The translations under genes were made by a program, and so were the position numbers. From Escherichia phage VEc74: a stretch of DNA of 64,000 nucleotides. Each line of letters begins with the position of its first letter. The first letter of the stretch is position 1. Positions 6,359 through 19,738 of the stretch are shown here, one piece after another. Below the pieces are notes generated by a model that was not told the DNA's origin, searched no databases, and saw only the letters and a list, made by a program, of their open reading frames with translations. The stretch lies in sequence record MT932213.1. One strand, written 5' to 3'.

Positions 6359-6682
6359 TTAATCTTCTATGATATCTCTATCATATCCAAGTGAAATGAG
6401 AGTTTCTTTGAAGTGTTTAATGTTCTTTTGTCTAGAATCATTAATGAAAATGACTGGATAACGAATGTTAAGAGATGTGAATCCAGCGCGTTTAGCAAGA
6501 GATACAATCAGCGGACGATCATACTCAATCTTACCATTATTTGTAAGAACTTTATAGAAAGTAAAAGGAGCATTGAGCTCCTTTAGAAGTTTTGTAACTG
6601 ATTGACATCCAGGACAACGACCTACTTCATCTGGAATTCCATAGACTTCAATCTTATTCTTTAAGTTCGAGTTTTGTTCCAC
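6359..6682 (-). CDS. nrdH: Glutaredoxin/NrdH-like redoxin (CPGC active site)
   Basis: EVYGIPDEVGRCPGCQSV... thioredoxin-fold CxxC; ORF-track N-terminus overlaps upstream gene, so start placed at GTG 6682 (AAGGAA SD). Confidence 0.55.
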   Translation of the reverse strand: MEQNSNLKNKIEVYGIPDEVGRCPGCQSVTKLLKELNAPFTFYKVLTNNGKIEYDRPLIVSLAKRAGFTSLNIRYPVIFINDSRQKNIKHFKETLISLGYDRDIIED

Positions 6683-6965
6683 GAGAAATAATTCCTTGGT
6701 AAGCCCAATAAGGAGGATTAACAGAATCCTCACCAGAGTTTTCTTCAGGAAAATAAACCTGGATAACGAAGCCGGATTCATCAAAGGTGAAATAAGTAGT
6801 AGGCAGTTCACCTAACAAATCGGCACGAGCGTTGATTTCTTCGAGGTCTTGTTCACGTCCAGCCCAGAAGCTTGGGTTCAGACTACATTCATAGAAATAA
6901 TAGTCATTACCGAACATATCAAAACCATTCCAACTCTCTACTACATACCGCTCAAAACTAATCAT
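6654..6965 (-). CDS. Hypothetical protein
   Basis: ORF track, 103 aa. Confidence 0.5.
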   Translation of the reverse strand: MISFERYVVESWNGFDMFGNDYYFYECSLNPSFWAGREQDLEEINARADLLGELPTTYFTFDESGFVIQVYFPEENSGEDSVNPPYWAYQGIISRGTKLELKE

Positions 6966-6967
6966 AA

Positions 6968-7183
6968 TTAAGCCTTTTTATCAAGAACCGCATTCAGCTT
7001 GTTAGTAATTTTATCCAGACGCTCATTGAACTCACTAGAAGATAAGCCCTTTTCTGGAGAAATTAAACTAATCACGAAAAATATAGCAATAAAAGGAATA
7101 AGGAAAATAGCTCCAACTGCCATAAACAGAAAGAATGTTACAGTTGTAAGAAAATCAGCTAAACCTTTACGAAATTTATACAT
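6968..7183 (-). CDS. Small membrane protein (single TM helix)
   Basis: TVTFFLFMAVGAIFLIPFIAIFFVISLI hydrophobic segment. Confidence 0.45.
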   Translation of the reverse strand: MYKFRKGLADFLTTVTFFLFMAVGAIFLIPFIAIFFVISLISPEKGLSSSEFNERLDKITNKLNAVLDKKA

Positions 7184-11246: not shown

Positions 11247-11425
11247 TTAGAAATAGACTTTTCGCCGTTAGAATAATAAACTTCGAGTTTAGCACGATTA
11301 TTTTTAATTTGAATAACCTTGGCTGTCATCAAAGTTCCATACCCATAGTAAACTGCAACTTCATCACCTACATATACCGCGCTTCCGCGATAATCATGGA
11401 TATAATCAGTTCCTTCGAGCATCAT
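11210..11425 (-). CDS. Hypothetical small protein
   Basis: ORF track. Confidence 0.4.
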   Translation of the reverse strand: MMLEGTDYIHDYRGSAVYVGDEVAVYYGYGTLMTAKVIQIKNNRAKLEVYYSNGEKSISKWKYGDCMVKLG

Positions 11426-11685
11426 TTAAAGTATTCCCGCAATTGGTCAAATCCACCAATATGACTTCCATCAGGAGCAAATACCTGGGGCATTGTCAAG
11501 CCGATTTGAGTATCACGACCTAGTTTAGTCAGAAGCTCAGCGATTTTCTCATCATCAAAAACACCTTTTTCCGGCATAATGTTGATAAATTCAAACGGCT
11601 GTTTCTTCACGGTCAAAAGACGTTTTGCATTATCGCAATACACACATTTATGAATGTTGCTATCATAACCATATACTTTAAACAT
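11422..11685 (-). CDS. nrdC: Glutaredoxin/thioredoxin (RNR electron donor)
   Basis: 87 aa; CVYC active site; matches T4 NrdC. Confidence 0.9.
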   Translation of the reverse strand: MFKVYGYDSNIHKCVYCDNAKRLLTVKKQPFEFINIMPEKGVFDDEKIAELLTKLGRDTQIGLTMPQVFAPDGSHIGGFDQLREYFK

Positions 11686-11686
11686 A

Positions 11687-11929
11687 TTATTCCTTAATTC
11701 CTAGTACTTGTTTAAAAGTCTCGTCGTAATCAAGACTTTGGCCCGTTTGTTCTTTATGTTTGTATATAATATCACTTACTTCTGATAGCATATTTTTATA
11801 TGAACGAGTTAAAGCAGATTTAAGCACGCTGTATCTATCAGGAAATTTACCATGTTCATTATAATAAGCTATTGCTAATTCACGGACTGCCTTTTCAGCA
11901 GTCTCCATATATTCTTTACGCTTGGTCAT
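11687..11929 (-). CDS. Hypothetical protein (start at internal ATG 11929)
   Basis: ORF track 11687..12070 trimmed; [23 protein letters not shown]... Confidence 0.45.
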
Positions 11930-12230
11930 TTTCTTCTCGGTCAAATCGGTGTTTACAATGGCGACATTTATAACGAAGATTATTAGTCTGCCAATGGACC
12001 AATTGCACCTGTTCAGTTCCACATTCAGGGCAATTAGGAACGTTTTTAGAAGCGCGTTCGCGGCGTTCAACCATGACCATTACAGAATCCCAATTAATAG
12101 GGCTGCTATAATCATCACAACCATGAATCTTTCCACGCATTTCCAAATCGTCTTCTTCACCAGCCATAATAATTTTAATTAGACTAGAATTACTTGAAGC
12201 TGCAATGTCTTCTAATAGACGCTTTTTCAT
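11916..12230 (-). CDS. Zinc-ribbon protein
   Basis: Two CxxC pairs (CPECGTEQ ... CRHCKH). Confidence 0.5.
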
Positions 12231-13153
12231 TTCAATACCTCAATAGCATTACGTAAACCATTTGCTTTTGCATTAAGAGCTTTTAACAATTTGGTGTGTT
12301 CTGCAATTTGGGCTTCAACTTCAATCAAACGAGCATTGAGATATTCGCGTTCTTCTTTCATAGTATCATTCCCATGATTGGATTTTGGCGTAGGTTTAAA
12401 TTCACTAGGGTCCTTTAATTTAATAACAAATTTAGTTTCAAACAGTGAAAGACCATAATTCGTATTATCATCAAAGGATTTGACTACATCCATATCAGAT
12501 AATAACACGCGCAAATTATAAGCCAAAGAACTAATAGTTTCGTTATGTTTATTAGCTTCGCGTGGTTTCATATATGGAAGATTTTTATATATCTCGTGCG
12601 GAGCACAAATGATAATTGACAATTCAAATTGTCCATTTTGGGATGATGGAGTGAATTTAGCCGTAACCCAGTCTTTTACATTCACATTAATAGTACGGTT
12701 ATCACCATGACAAAACAGTCTACGAGAATGCTTAAAAAGCATATTCACGTTATTATTGAATTCGTGTGAAAATTCACTAGCAAATTTTTCTTTACTATCT
12801 TTAGAAAACCATTCTTCTAAATAAGTTCTTTTCACGTCGTTAATAATATTAAATGTAACAACACTAGCATTTGATACATTAGTCTCAATGTAGTTTGGAT
12901 ACATAAATTTTTTAACATTATTAACAGCTATCACAGAAGATAGTAATCGGGAACGTTTGAACCACTCGAGCAAAGAACCAAGAGAATGTGAATACGCATT
13001 TTGTGTATCTTTACAAATATGGTTTTCCCATCCAATATAGTCTAAAAAATCACGAAGAATATTATTGATTACTGCTCTGTGTCCGATCTGATAATTACGG
13101 TGTTTAGTAATAAGACTGTCAAAATAATCAATATAATGTTTACGAGTTTTCAT
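12227..13153 (-). CDS. Hypothetical protein, paralog family member 1 (C-terminal coiled coil)
   Basis: 308 aa; shares N-terminal MKTR..., central ...DMDVV... segment and C-terminal amphipathic helix with the three following genes. Confidence 0.6.
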   Translation of the reverse strand: MKTRKHYIDYFDSLITKHRNYQIGHRAVINNILRDFLDYIGWENHICKDTQNAYSHSLGSLLEWFKRSRLLSSVIAVNNVKKFMYPNYIETNVSNASVVTFNIINDVKRTYLEEWFSKDSKEKFASEFSHEFNNNVNMLFKHSRRLFCHGDNRTINVNVKDWVTAKFTPSSQNGQFELSIIICAPHEIYKNLPYMKPREANKHNETISSLAYNLRVLLSDMDVVKSFDDNTNYGLSLFETKFVIKLKDPSEFKPTPKSNHGNDTMKEEREYLNARLIEVEAQIAEHTKLLKALNAKANGLRNAIEVLK

Positions 13154-13207
13154 GTTCTTCTCACTTGGTTAATGGTTTATACTCCGAGCCATCCTTGGCT
13201 TTAAATT

Positions 13208-14209
13208 TTACTTAATTAACTGTAAAGCTTGTTCAAGACGATCCAGGCGATTAACAGATTCTTCCCAAATCCTTTTAGCCTGCTCATATTCTTTCTGCGC
13301 TTTGTTAGAAATTTCTAGAACTTCTTTATAAGCTTTTTCTAGTGCAATAACTTCTGGACGAATTTCTACCGGTTCAGGTGAATCATCAAGATTATCCATT
13401 AGTTCCTCAAGGGTAGTTTCTTCTTTAGGAGTATTCACAATTTCATCACATTTTTGTTGGTAAATTTCTTTATCAGTAGGTGAATAAGCACATTTCACTT
13501 CACGAAGACTAATTACAATTTTATATCCTTCCCAGCCGCACATATTCTTAAAAGGATATGTATGAATATTTTCTACTGTTTCCATACAAAGTAATGCGGT
13601 CTCTAATTGACGAGTTATAGTGCTAGCAATTGAGAAAAATTTATTAATATTCTTTTGGTTAGCTTCTGGTGTAAAAAATCCATAATTCACAAAAATAGAT
13701 ACTTTATTTTTATCAAGTTCATATTCTTTTATGATAATCATATCAGAAGCCAAAGGATGAATTTGACGATAATCGCCATAACATAATTTAGAAGCTGATT
13801 TTAGAATTTGCTTCTTAAAAAGTCTGAAATTACTAATCCAACGACGAGTAAAAATATTCTCAGGGTCTTCTTTGACATTAAGATGATAAGAATTAACATC
13901 ACCGAACCAATTATATCCTACTACATCTTTGGTTCGTTTAATTTCTTTCCCAAAATTACCAAGAATATCCCGATTAACCAAATATGAAAGAAGACGAGAC
14001 TCTTTAAAGGTTTTCTTGATAACATCTTTATCTACACGGCTAGAAATTTTACGAATTTCATGAATAAATTTAGTAGAAGAAACAATACTTGCATCAACAC
14101 TATTGAGCCACTGATTGATAATAGAAATAACGCTATTTTGGCCAAACATCGGTATAGCTTTACCATCAATAACGCTATTGAATGATTTGATATATTCGTT
14201 ACGAGTCAT
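13208..14209 (-). CDS. Hypothetical protein, paralog family member 2 (C-terminal coiled coil)
   Basis: ORF track 13208..14260 trimmed to ATG 14209 (GAGGAG SD, own early promoter); C-terminal EYEQAKRIWEESVNRLDRLEQALQLIK. Confidence 0.6.
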   Translation of the reverse strand: MTRNEYIKSFNSVIDGKAIPMFGQNSVISIINQWLNSVDASIVSSTKFIHEIRKISSRVDKDVIKKTFKESRLLSYLVNRDILGNFGKEIKRTKDVVGYNWFGDVNSYHLNVKEDPENIFTRRWISNFRLFKKQILKSASKLCYGDYRQIHPLASDMIIIKEYELDKNKVSIFVNYGFFTPEANQKNINKFFSIASTITRQLETALLCMETVENIHTYPFKNMCGWEGYKIVISLREVKCAYSPTDKEIYQQKCDEIVNTPKEETTLEELMDNLDDSPEPVEIRPEVIALEKAYKEVLEISNKAQKEYEQAKRIWEESVNRLDRLEQALQLIK

Positions 14210-14235
14210 AATAATCTCCTCAGTAGAAAGTAAGA

Positions 14236-14268
14236 ACATTATACCACATCCTTGTGGCAAAGTAAACT
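14236..14268 (-). promoter_or_regulatory. T4-type early promoter
   Basis: minus-strand GTTTAC (plus 14262..14267) ... TATAAT ... GAGGAG SD ... ATG 14209. Confidence 0.45.
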
Positions 14269-15286
14269 AGTTCAGTGCATTTAGTGCATTGTTCAGTTTA
14301 GAACGTTGCTTTGTCAGATTTTGAACCCTTGACTGAGCTTGTTCTAACGCCTTTTCAGCTTCTAACACTTCATTGGTCGCTTTAACGAGTTCATCATCTA
14401 CTGCCTTAAGGGACTTCTCAATCGCATCCGCGTGCCATTTTTCAACAGGTTTAAGACTCGGATTTTCAATAGGAAGAAAATTCACTTTATTGAATTTCCA
14501 TGCATCTTTATTACCTGAACTATACATCCAAAATTTAGGATCATTTGACGAGTAATTAGATAAATTTAAGTTATCTTGCACTTCCTGCTTTTTCTCTTGC
14601 GGGACTTCGTCCTTTCTCAAAAAATCGTATTTAAATGAAACGATCATATCAAGTTCATATGATGTTGTATCTAACTTAAATCGTTCAAAACGAGGTAAAA
14701 TCTTAGATTGAACAGCAGCAACAACATCCATATACTTAAATGCTTCTGTCAACTGTGATTTAAGGCATTCACAAATTGAAAGAGAATTTTTTGTATTAGG
14801 TTTAAAGCTAATTCGTGCAGTTCTATTATTTTCTTTTAACGGTCTTACTTCCATCTGAAGAGTATAACCATCAAATTTCAGATTCTTTAAGTTAATATCA
14901 GAGCCTTTTAATCGACTAGCAGTAGACAAAATTTGCTTTAATTGTCTACGGAACAGAGCAATAAATCTCCATTCAATACGATAATGATTTGGATTGAAAA
15001 ATCCAGATGATAAATCGACCTTACTTTGACCAACGCCTTGAACAAATAGAGGATTTTTATAATCAATAGTTTTACAGAAATCGGTGAGCTGCTCACGAGC
15101 AGTCATTTGTGTAATATACCCCGCTTTATTAAAATGACGTAACCATTCACTGCTATTCATATATTTAAAGTGAATATCACGATTAACTTTATCAGGGTCT
15201 AAATTATTTTGGCACAAAAATGTCATAACATCACGAGTATAGCTGGCATTACGAACCATATCTTCAATTTGAGAACGAGTTTTCAT
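14267..15286 (-). CDS. Hypothetical protein, paralog family member 3 (C-terminal coiled coil)
   Basis: 339 aa; MKTR... N-terminus; C-terminal EVLEAEKALEQAQSRVQNLTKQRSKLNNALNALN. Confidence 0.6.
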   Translation of the reverse strand: MKTRSQIEDMVRNASYTRDVMTFLCQNNLDPDKVNRDIHFKYMNSSEWLRHFNKAGYITQMTAREQLTDFCKTIDYKNPLFVQGVGQSKVDLSSGFFNPNHYRIEWRFIALFRRQLKQILSTASRLKGSDINLKNLKFDGYTLQMEVRPLKENNRTARISFKPNTKNSLSICECLKSQLTEAFKYMDVVAAVQSKILPRFERFKLDTTSYELDMIVSFKYDFLRKDEVPQEKKQEVQDNLNLSNYSSNDPKFWMYSSGNKDAWKFNKVNFLPIENPSLKPVEKWHADAIEKSLKAVDDELVKATNEVLEAEKALEQAQSRVQNLTKQRSKLNNALNALN

Positions 15287-15294
15287 GGTGTTCC

Positions 15295-16209
15295 TTAAGA
15301 TTTAAGTAAATCAACAATTTTAATTAACTTTTCACGCTCAGATTTAGCTTTACTACTCAATCCGGATAGTCTGAAAATTTCATCGTCATATTGTTGAATA
15401 GAAATATTCAGCTCTTCAATTTGCTTATTAAAATAATCAATTTGTTCAGAATGTTTTTCGTTACTACGAACTGGTACAGGTTTTGTAGGCAATTTAGTTA
15501 AACTGGATTCATCCGGGCGATAAATTAAAATGCAATTTGAACCAATAGGGCATTTTGCACCAGATGAATATTCTAATGTTCCGGCTTCTTTTAAAACTTC
15601 AAAAGCTAAACAGAGATGATGCCCCATATTGACATAATCTGTAGAGTGAGCGCTGACGTAATAATCATCTCCACGAGTACTAAATTTAAAGCATTTAAGG
15701 TCTTCTGTATTATTAGTTTTAAAAATCATTTGTTTATCTAGACCTTTAGCCAATCGAGCGCCTAATGCTAATAATCGTCGTTGATTTTCCCACAAATCCG
15801 CAATCATTTGGTCGAATGATAATTTCGGCATTAGTCGACCATAAAGGTCGTATCCTTTATTATAATTGCGAAGGATTTCACTCGCATTAATACGAGACAA
15901 TGCTCCAATTTTATTAAGGGCTTTCATAATGCGATTAGATAAACTCATTCCAGACCCGTTTGTTCGCTGTAAATGTTTTTCTAATCCAAATCCAATATCA
16001 ACTTTAAATTTATCTAAAATTTCAGCATGAACATCTCTGTCAATAACATTCAAATCCAAAGTTGGGTTAAATCTATGAAAAAATTTATCTGGCTCTCCAC
16101 GACGAAATACAGTCCATTCATTCATCATTTTTTTATTAACTAAAGATTTAATTACTGCATTGACATTATTAATTACTACTGACATATTTTCCTCACTCAA
16201 TTTTACCAA
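15295..16209 (-). CDS. Hypothetical protein, paralog family member 4 (C-terminal coiled coil)
   Basis: 304 aa; C-terminal QIEELNISIQQYDDEIFRLSGLSSKAKSEREKLIKIVDLLKS. Confidence 0.55.
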   Translation of the reverse strand: MVKLSEENMSVVINNVNAVIKSLVNKKMMNEWTVFRRGEPDKFFHRFNPTLDLNVIDRDVHAEILDKFKVDIGFGLEKHLQRTNGSGMSLSNRIMKALNKIGALSRINASEILRNYNKGYDLYGRLMPKLSFDQMIADLWENQRRLLALGARLAKGLDKQMIFKTNNTEDLKCFKFSTRGDDYYVSAHSTDYVNMGHHLCLAFEVLKEAGTLEYSSGAKCPIGSNCILIYRPDESSLTKLPTKPVPVRSNEKHSEQIDYFNKQIEELNISIQQYDDEIFRLSGLSSKAKSEREKLIKIVDLLKS

Positions 16210-16594
16210 TTACGCGGAATAAGATTGAACAGACTATATAAGTACCACATATAGATTGAACTAATGCCATTCCAAAGAACCAAACAATATTATCAAACCA
16301 TGTCTGTTTTACGTCGAAAGGACGTAAACTTACAGTAATATTATCACCTTTTTCTATTGATGAATACATCTCTGGGGAAATATATTCGCTAAATCTATAA
16401 CCGTCTTTGAGTTCATATACAGCAATAAACGATAAACTAGACCCCTTTCCTTGAGTTCCTGTAAGGGTATTAACTACAGTAACATCATAATCTTTATAAT
16501 GCATATAATCATTAATAGCATAATAACCATATGCAACTACTACACATAAACAGCATATCAATAAATTCAATCTTTTAATTATCAACTGTTTCAT
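16193..16594 (-). CDS. Membrane protein (N- and C-terminal hydrophobic segments)
   Basis: LLICCLCVVVAYGYYAI and IVWFFGMALVQSICGTYIVCSILF segments. Confidence 0.5.
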   Translation of the reverse strand: MKQLIIKRLNLLICCLCVVVAYGYYAINDYMHYKDYDVTVVNTLTGTQGKGSSLSFIAVYELKDGYRFSEYISPEMYSSIEKGDNITVSLRPFDVKQTWFDNIVWFFGMALVQSICGTYIVCSILFRVIGKIE

Positions 16595-17237: not shown

Positions 17238-17552
17238 CTAAAAGAAACTTCTTTCACAATTTTTTCCACTGAACCACGCGCTCACTGCTTTCTTAGTCTC
17301 AGGAGCAGTGTTATCCATAAACCATTCAAAGGCAGCCTTTTTATGATTCTGGAGGGCTTCTCGGGCTTTAATCTGTTCACGGTCTATTAACACTAACATA
17401 TGAGCCTTTCTTGTCACCATGGGCTTCTTATGATTTTTTGAATATTCCCAATCATTTGTCCATCGCATCGTTGTTGCGAATTGAAGTACAGCTTCTTTAA
17501 TCTTAGTTTCGTAAATTTCACGAGCCTTTGAGTATAACATCACTACCTCCAT
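17238..17552 (-). CDS. Hypothetical protein
   Basis: ORF track, 104 aa. Confidence 0.5.
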   Translation of the reverse strand: MEVVMLYSKAREIYETKIKEAVLQFATTMRWTNDWEYSKNHKKPMVTRKAHMLVLIDREQIKAREALQNHKKAAFEWFMDNTAPETKKAVSAWFSGKNCERSFF

Positions 17553-17641: not shown

Positions 17642-18622
17642 TTATTTCAGAAGAGTAACCTCAGCAATTTCTTCCCAACCGTTTTTGTCGGTCATAATAA
17701 AGTCAGCAAGATAAAGAGCAGTACGCAGTGAAACATTGCGTAAACGGTTAACATTGACTTTCATCCATGATAATGCTTTATAAGTTTCTTCATCAGAAAG
17801 ACCGCGCTTTTGCATCATGTCGGTTGAAAGAATAACATCTTCAACCCTGACCATAATTTCTTCATTAGTGTGAACACCCAAATCCAAATAAACTGAGCGG
17901 GACACTAATGCTTGTAAATGTGGAGCAAGTTTAGTACCACGGTCTAATTCGCGGTCAATATCAACGTTTGTGATAAAAACAATCGTTCCTTTAAATTCAA
18001 ACTCACGGTCAATGCCTTTTTCTTCTAAGTAAGAAGATGCAGTGCTCCAGCAGACTTTACGGGTCTCTCCAGTGTCCAGAGCAGCTTTCAGAAGATTAAG
18101 AATGTCCATATCAGAGAAAACATCCACATCATCAATCAAAAGGACAGAATTCTCTTCACGATTATTCCAAAGCTGCTCATAAAGACCGATACCCGAGATT
18201 TTACCATTGATGCTTTTATATTCAATGTATCCAATATCATTTGCTTTATTCAAAGCTTTATCTAAAGAATACGTTTTACCAATACCTGCTGCTCCCGAGA
18301 TAATTAATGAACGAATGTTTCCGTTAATAATACCATTCGTCATCATTCCCATAACATTAAATCTTTTATTAATGCGGGTTTTCATATCTTCATATGATTC
18401 TTTAACTTCTTCAACTTTTACACCATCATATGAAATGTCTGATTTGTAAACCCAAACACCGCGACGTTTACCATCAATTTCAACAAAAACTTTACCATCT
18501 CCTTGTGCATCTACCGGAGCATTATCTGGGAACCATTCGCCTAAGAGCTCAAAAGTTCCAGAGATTTCTTTACCGAAGTAGATACCCTTATTGATAGTTA
18601 CAGTTTTCATTTTATTCTCCAA
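17642..18622 (-). CDS. AAA+/P-loop ATPase
   Basis: Walker A ISGAAGIGKTYS and Walker B VLLIDDVD; 326 aa. Confidence 0.7.
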   Translation of the reverse strand: MENKMKTVTINKGIYFGKEISGTFELLGEWFPDNAPVDAQGDGKVFVEIDGKRRGVWVYKSDISYDGVKVEEVKESYEDMKTRINKRFNVMGMMTNGIINGNIRSLIISGAAGIGKTYSLDKALNKANDIGYIEYKSINGKISGIGLYEQLWNNREENSVLLIDDVDVFSDMDILNLLKAALDTGETRKVCWSTASSYLEEKGIDREFEFKGTIVFITNVDIDRELDRGTKLAPHLQALVSRSVYLDLGVHTNEEIMVRVEDVILSTDMMQKRGLSDEETYKALSWMKVNVNRLRNVSLRTALYLADFIMTDKNGWEEIAEVTLLK

Positions 18623-18724: not shown

Positions 18725-19738
18725 TCATTTATAATAACTTCGGTGGTTTTCAAGATAAACCTTCTCAAGGAAGTCATCCCAAAAACCCATGTCTACTTTT
18801 TGCTGCATACCGTTCTTAGAAGCTTCAGTAGATGCTGCTTCTACTTGATCGACCACATCTTCCAAAAACTCTTGAACCGTTTTAAATGGATGTTTACCCA
18901 ACTTCACGTCGAGAATAAATGGAGCGTCTTGAAGTGGATAAACCAAGTCACCAGTTTTGTAAATTTCCAATAGTTGAAGTCCACCACGACAAGCATGGCT
19001 CAGAGCTTTCCAGTCAATACCTTCGTTGGCTTCGGCCTTACGGGCACGTTCACCATATTCAGCATCTAATTTGTTCAGTGACTGCTTAAGCTCAATAAGA
19101 GAAAGCGTTGTCTGATATTTACGACCCAACACAGTGTAGAACGTTTGTGGGCCTGTTTTCTCATGATTATGGAACACCCATTCACAGAATTCGTTTTCTG
19201 GAAGACGATGCTTAATATCTTCAACTTTAGTACGACGCTGCTTAATGGAACCGTCTTCTTGGTAATCAACCCATTGCTCAGGGATTTGATTAACTACTTT
19301 CAATACATCACGTAATGCAGCCAAACGAGAACCCTTGACCCCGTATTTAGAAGCTTGCTTACGGACATATCCTAAATAGGATTTCATGTTAGTCGTATAA
19401 AAACGAGAACGGTTGTCTTGAATAAACTTCCACACATCAGGCAAATCAGATTTAACCATTAGTTCAGGTGGAGTGTGAAGCATATCTAATGCTACGGTTT
19501 CACCATCTGCTGCTAATTTAAAGAAATATTTAAGACTGTATAGTTCATGGTCAATATCATCTTTAGTGTTTTTAGATGATGTGTTGTTAGTGTTTTTACT
19601 CATGTGCTCTTTGACATTTCCGATAAGAATATCACGAGCAGGAGGAACAAAAATTTCTTTAAAATCTACATCAGATTCTGGGGTAGAAGTTCCATAAAGA
19701 TGACTACCAAAATAGCTTTTCATTACTGTTTTCATCAT
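18725..19738 (-). CDS. Pol-beta-superfamily nucleotidyltransferase
   Basis: GSHLYGTSTPESDVDF (G-S...D-x-D) nucleotidyltransferase signature plus downstream acidic residue (ETVALDMLH); 337 aa. Confidence 0.65.
   Translation of the reverse strand: MMKTVMKSYFGSHLYGTSTPESDVDFKEIFVPPARDILIGNVKEHMSKNTNNTSSKNTKDDIDHELYSLKYFFKLAADGETVALDMLHTPPELMVKSDLPDVWKFIQDNRSRFYTTNMKSYLGYVRKQASKYGVKGSRLAALRDVLKVVNQIPEQWVDYQEDGSIKQRRTKVEDIKHRLPENEFCEWVFHNHEKTGPQTFYTVLGRKYQTTLSLIELKQSLNKLDAEYGERARKAEANEGIDWKALSHACRGGLQLLEIYKTGDLVYPLQDAPFILDVKLGKHPFKTVQEFLEDVVDQVEAASTEASKNGMQQKVDMGFWDDFLEKVYLENHRSYYK

Follow-up and report, generated by a model that had tools for sequence, protein, structure and literature searches.

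The tandem nrdC.3 to nrdC.6 genes of a T4-like phage: a proposed Straboviridae superfamily that includes the anti-Dsr1 factor NrdC.5

Four T4 genes in tandem

We analyzed a 64,000-nucleotide stretch of DNA from Escherichia phage VEc74 (sequence record MT932213.1), referred to below as the window, and in it a tandem array of four consecutive open reading frames (ORFs) on the minus strand. A preliminary description of this DNA had not recognized the ORFs as long-annotated T4 genes. They are the orthologs of T4 nrdC.3, nrdC.4, nrdC.5 and nrdC.6, with full-length proteins that are 90-97% identical to those of T4. Over 4.7 kb around the array, the DNA was 96-97% identical to T4, T2, RB27 and more than 460 other records, and the gene order (nrdC.2, nrdC.3, nrdC.4, nrdC.5, nrdC.6, nrdC.7) was that of T4; the window is from a Tequatrovirus. 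The site of the array is a non-essential, hypervariable stretch between nrdC.10/nrdC.11 and nrdC. The features are collected in Table 1.

Two gene starts differ from those assigned earlier. The nrdC.4 gene starts with the ATG at 14209 (MTRNEYI), which has a Shine-Dalgarno sequence (GAGGAG) 6 nucleotides on its 5' side; the TTG at 14260, previously taken as the start, lies within a promoter. The start of nrdC.6 is most likely the ATG at 16185 and not the TTG at 16209. After these corrections, the M(K)TR start that had been noticed in two of the ORFs as MKTR was found in three of the four.

An intact nrdC.6 gene of 296 codons is present in the window, in T4T and in most relatives. In the T4 reference record (AF158101), however, NrdC.6 is annotated as a protein of 275 amino acids, and the record has a one-nucleotide deletion relative to the window at about position 15385 (gagctg-atat versus gagctgaatat). 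The record still encodes the conserved coiled-coil tail, in the +1 frame. The deletion is either a sequencing error or a frameshift of the laboratory strain.

Table 1. Features of the nrdC.3-nrdC.6 array and its neighbors in the window
Feature	Position	Strand	Description
nrdC.3 ortholog	12227..13153	minus	308 amino acids; 90% identical to T4 nrdC.3; PF26897 / phrog_1435 type; T4-type allele
nrdC.4-nrdC.3 intergenic region	13154..13207	minus	degenerate copy of the nrdC.4 promoter: TTAAAG, 17-nucleotide spacer, TATAAA; hairpin AGCCAAGGATGGCT
nrdC.4 ortholog	13208..14209	minus	333 amino acids; ATG start; PF26897 / phrog_1435 type
T4-type early promoter (predicted)	14238..14266	minus	GTTTACT, 17-nucleotide spacer, extended -10 TGgTATAAT; consensus and conservation
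nrdC.5 ortholog	14267..15286	minus	339 amino acids; 97% identical to T4 nrdC.5; DUF7235 / phrog_2351
nrdC.6 ortholog	15295..16185	minus	296 amino acids; PF26899 / phrog_2257; most divergent array member; intact
nrdC.2	11916..12230		small zinc-ribbon protein
nrdC.7	16193..16594
nrdC.9	17238..17552
nrdC.10	17642..18622		AAA/STAND-like ATPase
nrdC.11	18725..19738		RlaP-type nucleotidyltransferase

Relationship and architecture of the four proteins

The family databases divide the four proteins among three families. PF26897 (Phage_T4_Y04OP) and phrog_1435 already join nrdC.3 and nrdC.4, and nrdC.5 (DUF7235, phrog_2351) and nrdC.6 (PF26899 Phage_T4_Y05B, phrog_2257) are each kept as a separate family in Pfam and PHROGs. 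Each gene of the window falls in the matching family. The nrdC.5 ortholog matched PF23882 (DUF7235) with 406.9 bits and an expectation value (E) of 8e-122 over profile positions 1-307 of 307 (gathering threshold, 30 bits), and the PHROG matches had E values of 1e-100 and 2e-168 for phrog_1435 (nrdC.3/nrdC.4) and 7e-152 for phrog_2257 (nrdC.6). Membership in PF26897 and PF26899 was assigned through close homologs (88-98% identical) that have precomputed matches to these families.

Plain pairwise BLASTP of the four proteins gave a significant result for nrdC.3 versus nrdC.4 alone (E 3e-4), and all other pairs were noise. We built family profiles from database homologs and 14 related viral loci and compared them using hhalign. 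The profiles of nrdC.3 and nrdC.4 matched with an E of 1e-12, and those of nrdC.4 and nrdC.5 with an E of 6e-6 over 231 colinear columns. In a search of 1.84 billion representative proteins, the nrdC.3/4/5 family profile retrieved 18 proteins at E <= 1e-3. Three of the 18, the remote members P0236, P0238 and P0239, matched nrdC.4 at 2e-11, nrdC.5 at 4e-13 and nrdC.3 at 6e-6, and these matches firmly connect the nrdC.3, nrdC.4 and nrdC.5 families.

The first-round profiles were too shallow for nrdC.6 (E 0.006-0.08), and the early weak score of nrdC.6 was higher than that of 400 out of 400 block-shuffled controls. With enlarged profiles, to which the remote members and RB69 nrdC.6 had been added, nrdC.6 matched the nrdC.3/4/5 profile with a probability of 95% and an E of 3.5e-8 over 163 columns of the N-terminal part, the coiled coil being excluded. 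A bridging sequence was also found: a 335-amino-acid protein of Enterobacter phage IME523, which is in none of the models that match it, was matched by the models of nrdC.6 (E 1e-8), nrdC.5 (5e-7) and nrdC.3/4/5 (1e-15). The negative controls nrdC.2, nrdC.7, nrdC.8, nrdC.9 and nrdC.10 gave E values of 0.09-0.8 against the same profiles, so that the array has exactly four detectable members. A common 175-amino-acid match in BFVD had raised the possibility that nrdC.8 is a truncated fifth member; this was ruled out (E 0.11-0.12, coil only).

Based on the profile-profile comparison, the bridging sequences and the structure predictions described below, the three Pfam/PHROGs families are one superfamily restricted to Straboviridae; this is the new point, the genes themselves being already known. 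We propose a single NrdC.3-6 superfamily, as the colinear similarity between profiles is significant outside the coiled coil for all four members, and nrdC.3 to nrdC.6 are four tandem paralogs, found only in Straboviridae, that arose from one ancestral gene. The preliminary description had suggested tandem paralogy and a shared architecture, with pairwise and profile alignment as the check. The E values, bridging proteins and controls bear out this suggestion, and the alignments found significant similarity rather than none.

Each protein consists of a basic globular part of about 220-250 residues, made up of a variable N-terminal helical region and a conserved alpha/beta core, followed by a linker of variable length that is predicted to be disordered and by a C-terminal helix. 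In the combined alignment, the elements stand in colinear order: the N-terminal M(K)TR..(Y/I)I, motif A (K-x-(G/S)-x-L-S...L..F), motif B (L..(A/G).(R/K)L..G.D), a helix with the sequence ..AL..MDVV (or METV) as the third core motif, a P-V element and the C-terminal helix. The MDVV/METV segment had been described in all four ORFs. In nrdC.3, nrdC.4 and nrdC.5 the segment does align as a genuine helix, whereas nrdC.6 has the helix without the literal motif.

The C-terminal helix is 44-59 residues long in all four proteins, has an unbroken a/d heptad pattern (p <= 0.0005 versus composition shuffles) and ends with L-x-x-L-K. The best tail match among the paralogs was nrdC.4 versus nrdC.5, with 35% identity and an E of 0.16. 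Thus, of the conserved C-terminal coiled coils described at first, the heptad helix is found in every member, but the paralogs have only the heptad pattern and the L-x-x-L-K ending in common. When orthologs were compared across genera, the tail and the motif A-B region were the best-conserved segments and the N-terminal helices the least conserved.

Single-chain AlphaFold2 models of nrdC.5 (predicted local distance difference test score, pLDDT, 73) and nrdC.6 (pLDDT 79) contained the long C-terminal helices for which structure prediction had been recommended. In nrdC.5, a disordered linker (residues 228-276) precedes a helix at 280-338; in nrdC.6, helices are found at 243-272 and 278-295. In the models of these two members (predicted template modeling score, pTM, 0.59 and 0.66), helices and hairpins follow one another in the same order, and both models match uncharacterized Straboviridae proteins in BFVD from Mineola (326 amino acids), Acj61 and Merlin. 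The nrdC.6 model also matches the IME523 protein in BFVD (E 3.7e-7).

In many GenBank records, orthologs of nrdC.3-nrdC.6 and of nrdC.10 carry the label "thioredoxin". This label, together with the position of the array near nrdC, nrdD and nrdG, could be taken to mean that the proteins have a role in nucleotide or redox metabolism with the neighboring nrd genes. We regard such a role as extremely improbable, since it is effectively refuted by the absence of a thioredoxin-fold signal: no thioredoxin, glutaredoxin or any other enzyme family was matched in Pfam, NCBIfam or PDB sequences, a fold search using the models found no thioredoxin fold, and the proteins lack the features of the thioredoxin/glutaredoxin family (a thioredoxin fold with CxxC and a Pfam or NCBIfam match). 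Most likely, the label spread from the gene name nrdC.x. Scans of the array proteins against Pfam, NCBIfam and PADLOC gave no informative family beyond DUF7235, and a search of PDB sequences gave weak coiled-coil noise only and no relative of solved structure. Clear homology to a characterized housekeeping enzyme family, which the preliminary description had named as the result that would speak against its proposal, was therefore not seen in Pfam, NCBIfam or PDB sequences.

Promoter, copy number and divergence of the array

A predicted T4-type early promoter lies between the stop codon of nrdC.5 and the start of nrdC.4. It had been proposed earlier as the second gene's own promoter, and both the match of its hexamers to the consensus and their conservation agree with this: the two hexamers are conserved across T-even genera, whereas the coding sequences there are only 24-52% identical. 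By its position, this promoter would drive nrdC.4 and the genes downstream. A similar early-type promoter is found upstream of nrdC.8, and nrdC.6 and nrdC.5 start only 7-8 nucleotides after their upstream genes. Early expression of the array fits the conservation of the early-type promoter.

The region 5' of nrdC.3 aligns with the promoter upstream of the nrdC.4-type genes in two non-Tequatrovirus loci (L008 and L011). It amounts to a degenerate version of the nrdC.4 promoter, and we infer that the promoter was probably duplicated together with the gene. A CCAAGGATGG-type hairpin is present in the spacer of both the nrdC.4 promoter and the copy upstream of nrdC.3, and the spacer element is conserved across genera.

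Copy number of the family expanded from one to three to four in Straboviridae. A single copy is found at the syntenic site in Jiaodavirus (JD18, Mineola), in Kanagawavirus (IME523) and in one metagenomic relative (P0239). Three copies are present in the non-Tequatrovirus T-even loci L008-L016 (nrdC.6, nrdC.5 and an nrdC.4-type gene) and in RB69 (nrdC.6, nrdC.5 and an nrdC.3-type gene), and four in Tequatrovirus. We dropped the idea that nrdC.3 is a duplicate specific to Tequatrovirus, as RB69 has an nrdC.3-type gene and no nrdC.4-type gene. Two allele classes of nrdC.3, about 62% identical to each other, occur in Tequatroviruses. The second class (L003, L006 and L007) is 78% identical to nrdC.3 of RB69 (L021), suggesting an exchange of nrdC.3 alleles between genera.

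The preliminary description had called the array fast-diverging, and the comparison with the flanking genes confirms this. Between the window and other T-even genera, identity was 41-52% for nrdC.4, 24-29% for nrdC.5 and 45-47% for nrdC.6, versus 78-87% for the flanking nrdC, nrdC.10 and nrdC.11. Within Tequatrovirus, the pairwise ratio of nonsynonymous to synonymous substitution rates (dN/dS) was 0.10-0.41 for the four array genes and 0-0.10 for nrdC, nrdC.8, nrdC.10 and nrdC.11. The ratio, which had been suggested as a check, is thus raised relative to the flanks, but gene-wide positive selection was not seen in these pairwise, gene-wide comparisons. Selection on the array genes is purifying but relaxed, or in part diversifying.

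Rearranged or disrupted copies were also found in the databases. P0056, from a 167-kb contig, is an in-frame chimera of natural origin that joins nrdC.5 (residues of about 145-269) to nrdC.3 (about residue 138 to its end) and in which nrdC.4 is deleted; its junction is out of homologous register, suggesting an illegitimate deletion. In RB69 (AY303349, about 6500-7000), the annotated nrdC.5 (300 amino acids) ends in an out-of-frame tail and the family coil (ending in LDKAQAKLRDAQSVVTNLQLQYSKLFNAMNALKS and a stop) lies in another frame, so either the phage or its record should contain a frameshift. A metagenome contig of 803 nucleotides (P0234, L018) has an unrelated N-terminus of 118 residues in front of the coiled-coil tail of nrdC.5, and the beginning of nrdC.4 comes next. 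The two alternatives, a real domain swap and an assembly chimera, are indistinguishable here, and we discarded it as evidence of a swap.

Such copies bear on an explanation in which nrdC.5 alone functions in defense evasion, a published role discussed below, and the remaining paralogs are duplicates that decay or drift neutrally in a hypervariable region prone to recombination. The raised dN/dS, the different copy numbers between genera, natural deletions and chimeras such as P0056, and the frameshifted database copies (a split nrdC.4 in L007, the T4 reference nrdC.6 and RB69 nrdC.5) are all what decay would produce. We nevertheless consider decay unlikely. All four ORFs are intact in the window and in most of the more than 460 related records, a dN/dS of 0.1-0.4 still means purifying selection, full-length nrdC.6 and nrdC.4 orthologs with invariant motifs are kept across genera at 41-52% identity, and the promoter is conserved.

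Between genera, the upstream neighbors nrdC.10 and nrdC.11 are 78-84% identical, far better conserved than the array, and nrdC.9 is 25-30% identical, as fast-diverging as nrdC.5. The nrdC.2 gene is mosaic within Tequatrovirus, with 54-97% identity and a synonymous rate (dS) above 1 in some pairs. No nrdC.7 gene was detected at the corresponding site of the non-Tequatrovirus loci L008-L016; RB69 carries it between nrdC.2 and nrdC. In some Tequatrovirus relatives, inserted ORFs of 239 and 273 amino acids (L004, 2855-3574; L005 and L007, about 11361-12182) separate nrdC.10 from nrdC.9 and gene 49 from nrdD, possibly as mobile or homing-endonuclease genes.

Counter-defense and the function of the array

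In the portion of Srikant et al. (2022, PMC9391042) that deals with nrdC.5, T4 nrdC.5 expressed from a plasmid allowed a deletion mutant to infect Dsr1-carrying MG1655 again, and deletion of dsr1 in the defending host restored infection as well; nrdC.5 is reported there as sufficient to overcome the Dsr1 SIR2 NADase defense. That portion of the paper gives no mechanism for nrdC.5 and does not mention the tandem paralogs. The third gene of the window is the full-length ortholog of this anti-Dsr1 factor (T4 NrdC.5, PF23882), and the comparison gave no difference between the two beyond their 97% identity. Dsr1 has a TPR sensor that is reported to recognize phage major capsid proteins (2026 preprint, PMC12803255). 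Our literature search found no mechanism for nrdC.5 and no function for nrdC.3, nrdC.4 or nrdC.6. Thus, the role in host interaction or counter-defense that had been guessed for the array is supported by the published rescue (in the portion of PMC9391042 cited above) for nrdC.5, and the support is limited to that one member.

We think it probable, at roughly 60%, that the array genes encode a diversified group of early factors for host range or counter-defense, which oligomerize via the coiled coil and bind host immune proteins. In such a mechanism, the proteins would be made early in infection and each would oligomerize through its C-terminal coiled coil. Each would use its variable globular part to bind a host immune protein and block it ahead of the late trigger, while late phage proteins have yet to appear. 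The likely target of nrdC.5 would be the Dsr1 sensor or the activation of its NADase, by analogy with the action of DSAD1 on DSR2, and the paralogs nrdC.3, nrdC.4 and nrdC.6 may target other variants or other systems.

The analogy is functional. DSAD1 (DSR anti-defense 1) of SPbeta-like phages is described as a phage protein that neutralizes a SIR2-domain NADase abortive-infection protein, and its binding mode is known, whereas NrdC.5 is linked to Dsr1 binding by analogy only. The target of DSAD1 is DSR2, not Dsr1, and no sequence or structural relationship between DSAD1 and NrdC.5 was detected. The array also resembles the T4 dmd-tifA-adfA "anti-TA (toxin-antitoxin) island" and IPIII, which the relevant portion of PMC9391042 presents as early or non-essential host-range genes in hypervariable regions that were lost in compensatory deletions. 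They differ from the array in that their proteins are unrelated, their target systems are different and they do not form a tandem paralog array.

Several points weigh against a set of oligomeric immune antagonists. The experimental support concerns nrdC.5 and comes without a mechanism, and direct binding of NrdC.5 to Dsr1 is an assumption made by analogy. It is the heptads by themselves that point to oligomerization through the tail, and the AlphaFold2 models, which were compared by element order and BFVD matches, are of moderate confidence (pTM 0.59 and 0.66). Because gene-wide dN/dS is below 1, there is no direct arms-race signature. Finally, the basic globular parts would equally fit nucleic-acid binding.

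The last point leads to a different explanation, in which the array proteins are early proteins that bind nucleic acid or are associated with transcription or replication, a basic domain being combined with a dimerizing coiled coil, and are not immune antagonists as a class. The rescue by nrdC.5 on Dsr1 hosts would then be indirect, for example through a changed timing or amount of the Dsr1 trigger. The globular parts of all four proteins are indeed basic, with a net charge of +6 to +11 and an isoelectric point of 9.0-9.5, and host transcription is the target of many T4 early proteins. However, no nucleic-acid-binding family was detected in the family scans, and a role of the housekeeping type is hard to reconcile with the very high divergence of the orthologs, the changes in copy number and the dispensability of the genes in the laboratory host. 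We judge this explanation improbable and prefer that of diversified counter-defense factors.

A more far-reaching version of the counter-defense explanation, which we offer tentatively and consider rather unlikely, is that the superfamily is a modular "inhibitor scaffold" of Straboviridae, in which the conserved tail and core present a fast-evolving N-terminal recognition surface and each paralog neutralizes a different immune sensor. If this were true, the targets could be, for example, different Dsr1 variants or other proteins with related TPR sensors such as Avs7, and the array would form a compact anti-immunity cassette, open to expansion, whose copy number tracks the defense repertoire of the host.

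The genes described here are long-annotated T4 ORFs, one of them with a published counter-defense role, so the feature is already known and the gain is incremental. What is added is the joining of the superfamily, the 1-3-4 history of copy number, the probable duplication of a promoter with its gene and a quantitative confirmation of the architecture. Two kinds of database error are also corrected: Pfam and PHROGs split the family three ways, and many orthologs are labeled "thioredoxin". Few phage factors against Dsr1 have been published, and NrdC.5, which is one of them, has three tandem paralogs of the same architecture as well as single-copy relatives in other Straboviridae. Because their paralog nrdC.5 is published as overcoming Dsr1, nrdC.3, nrdC.4 and nrdC.6 are candidate counter-defense genes, and the variable N-terminal helices are the obvious candidate for the segment that sets specificity.

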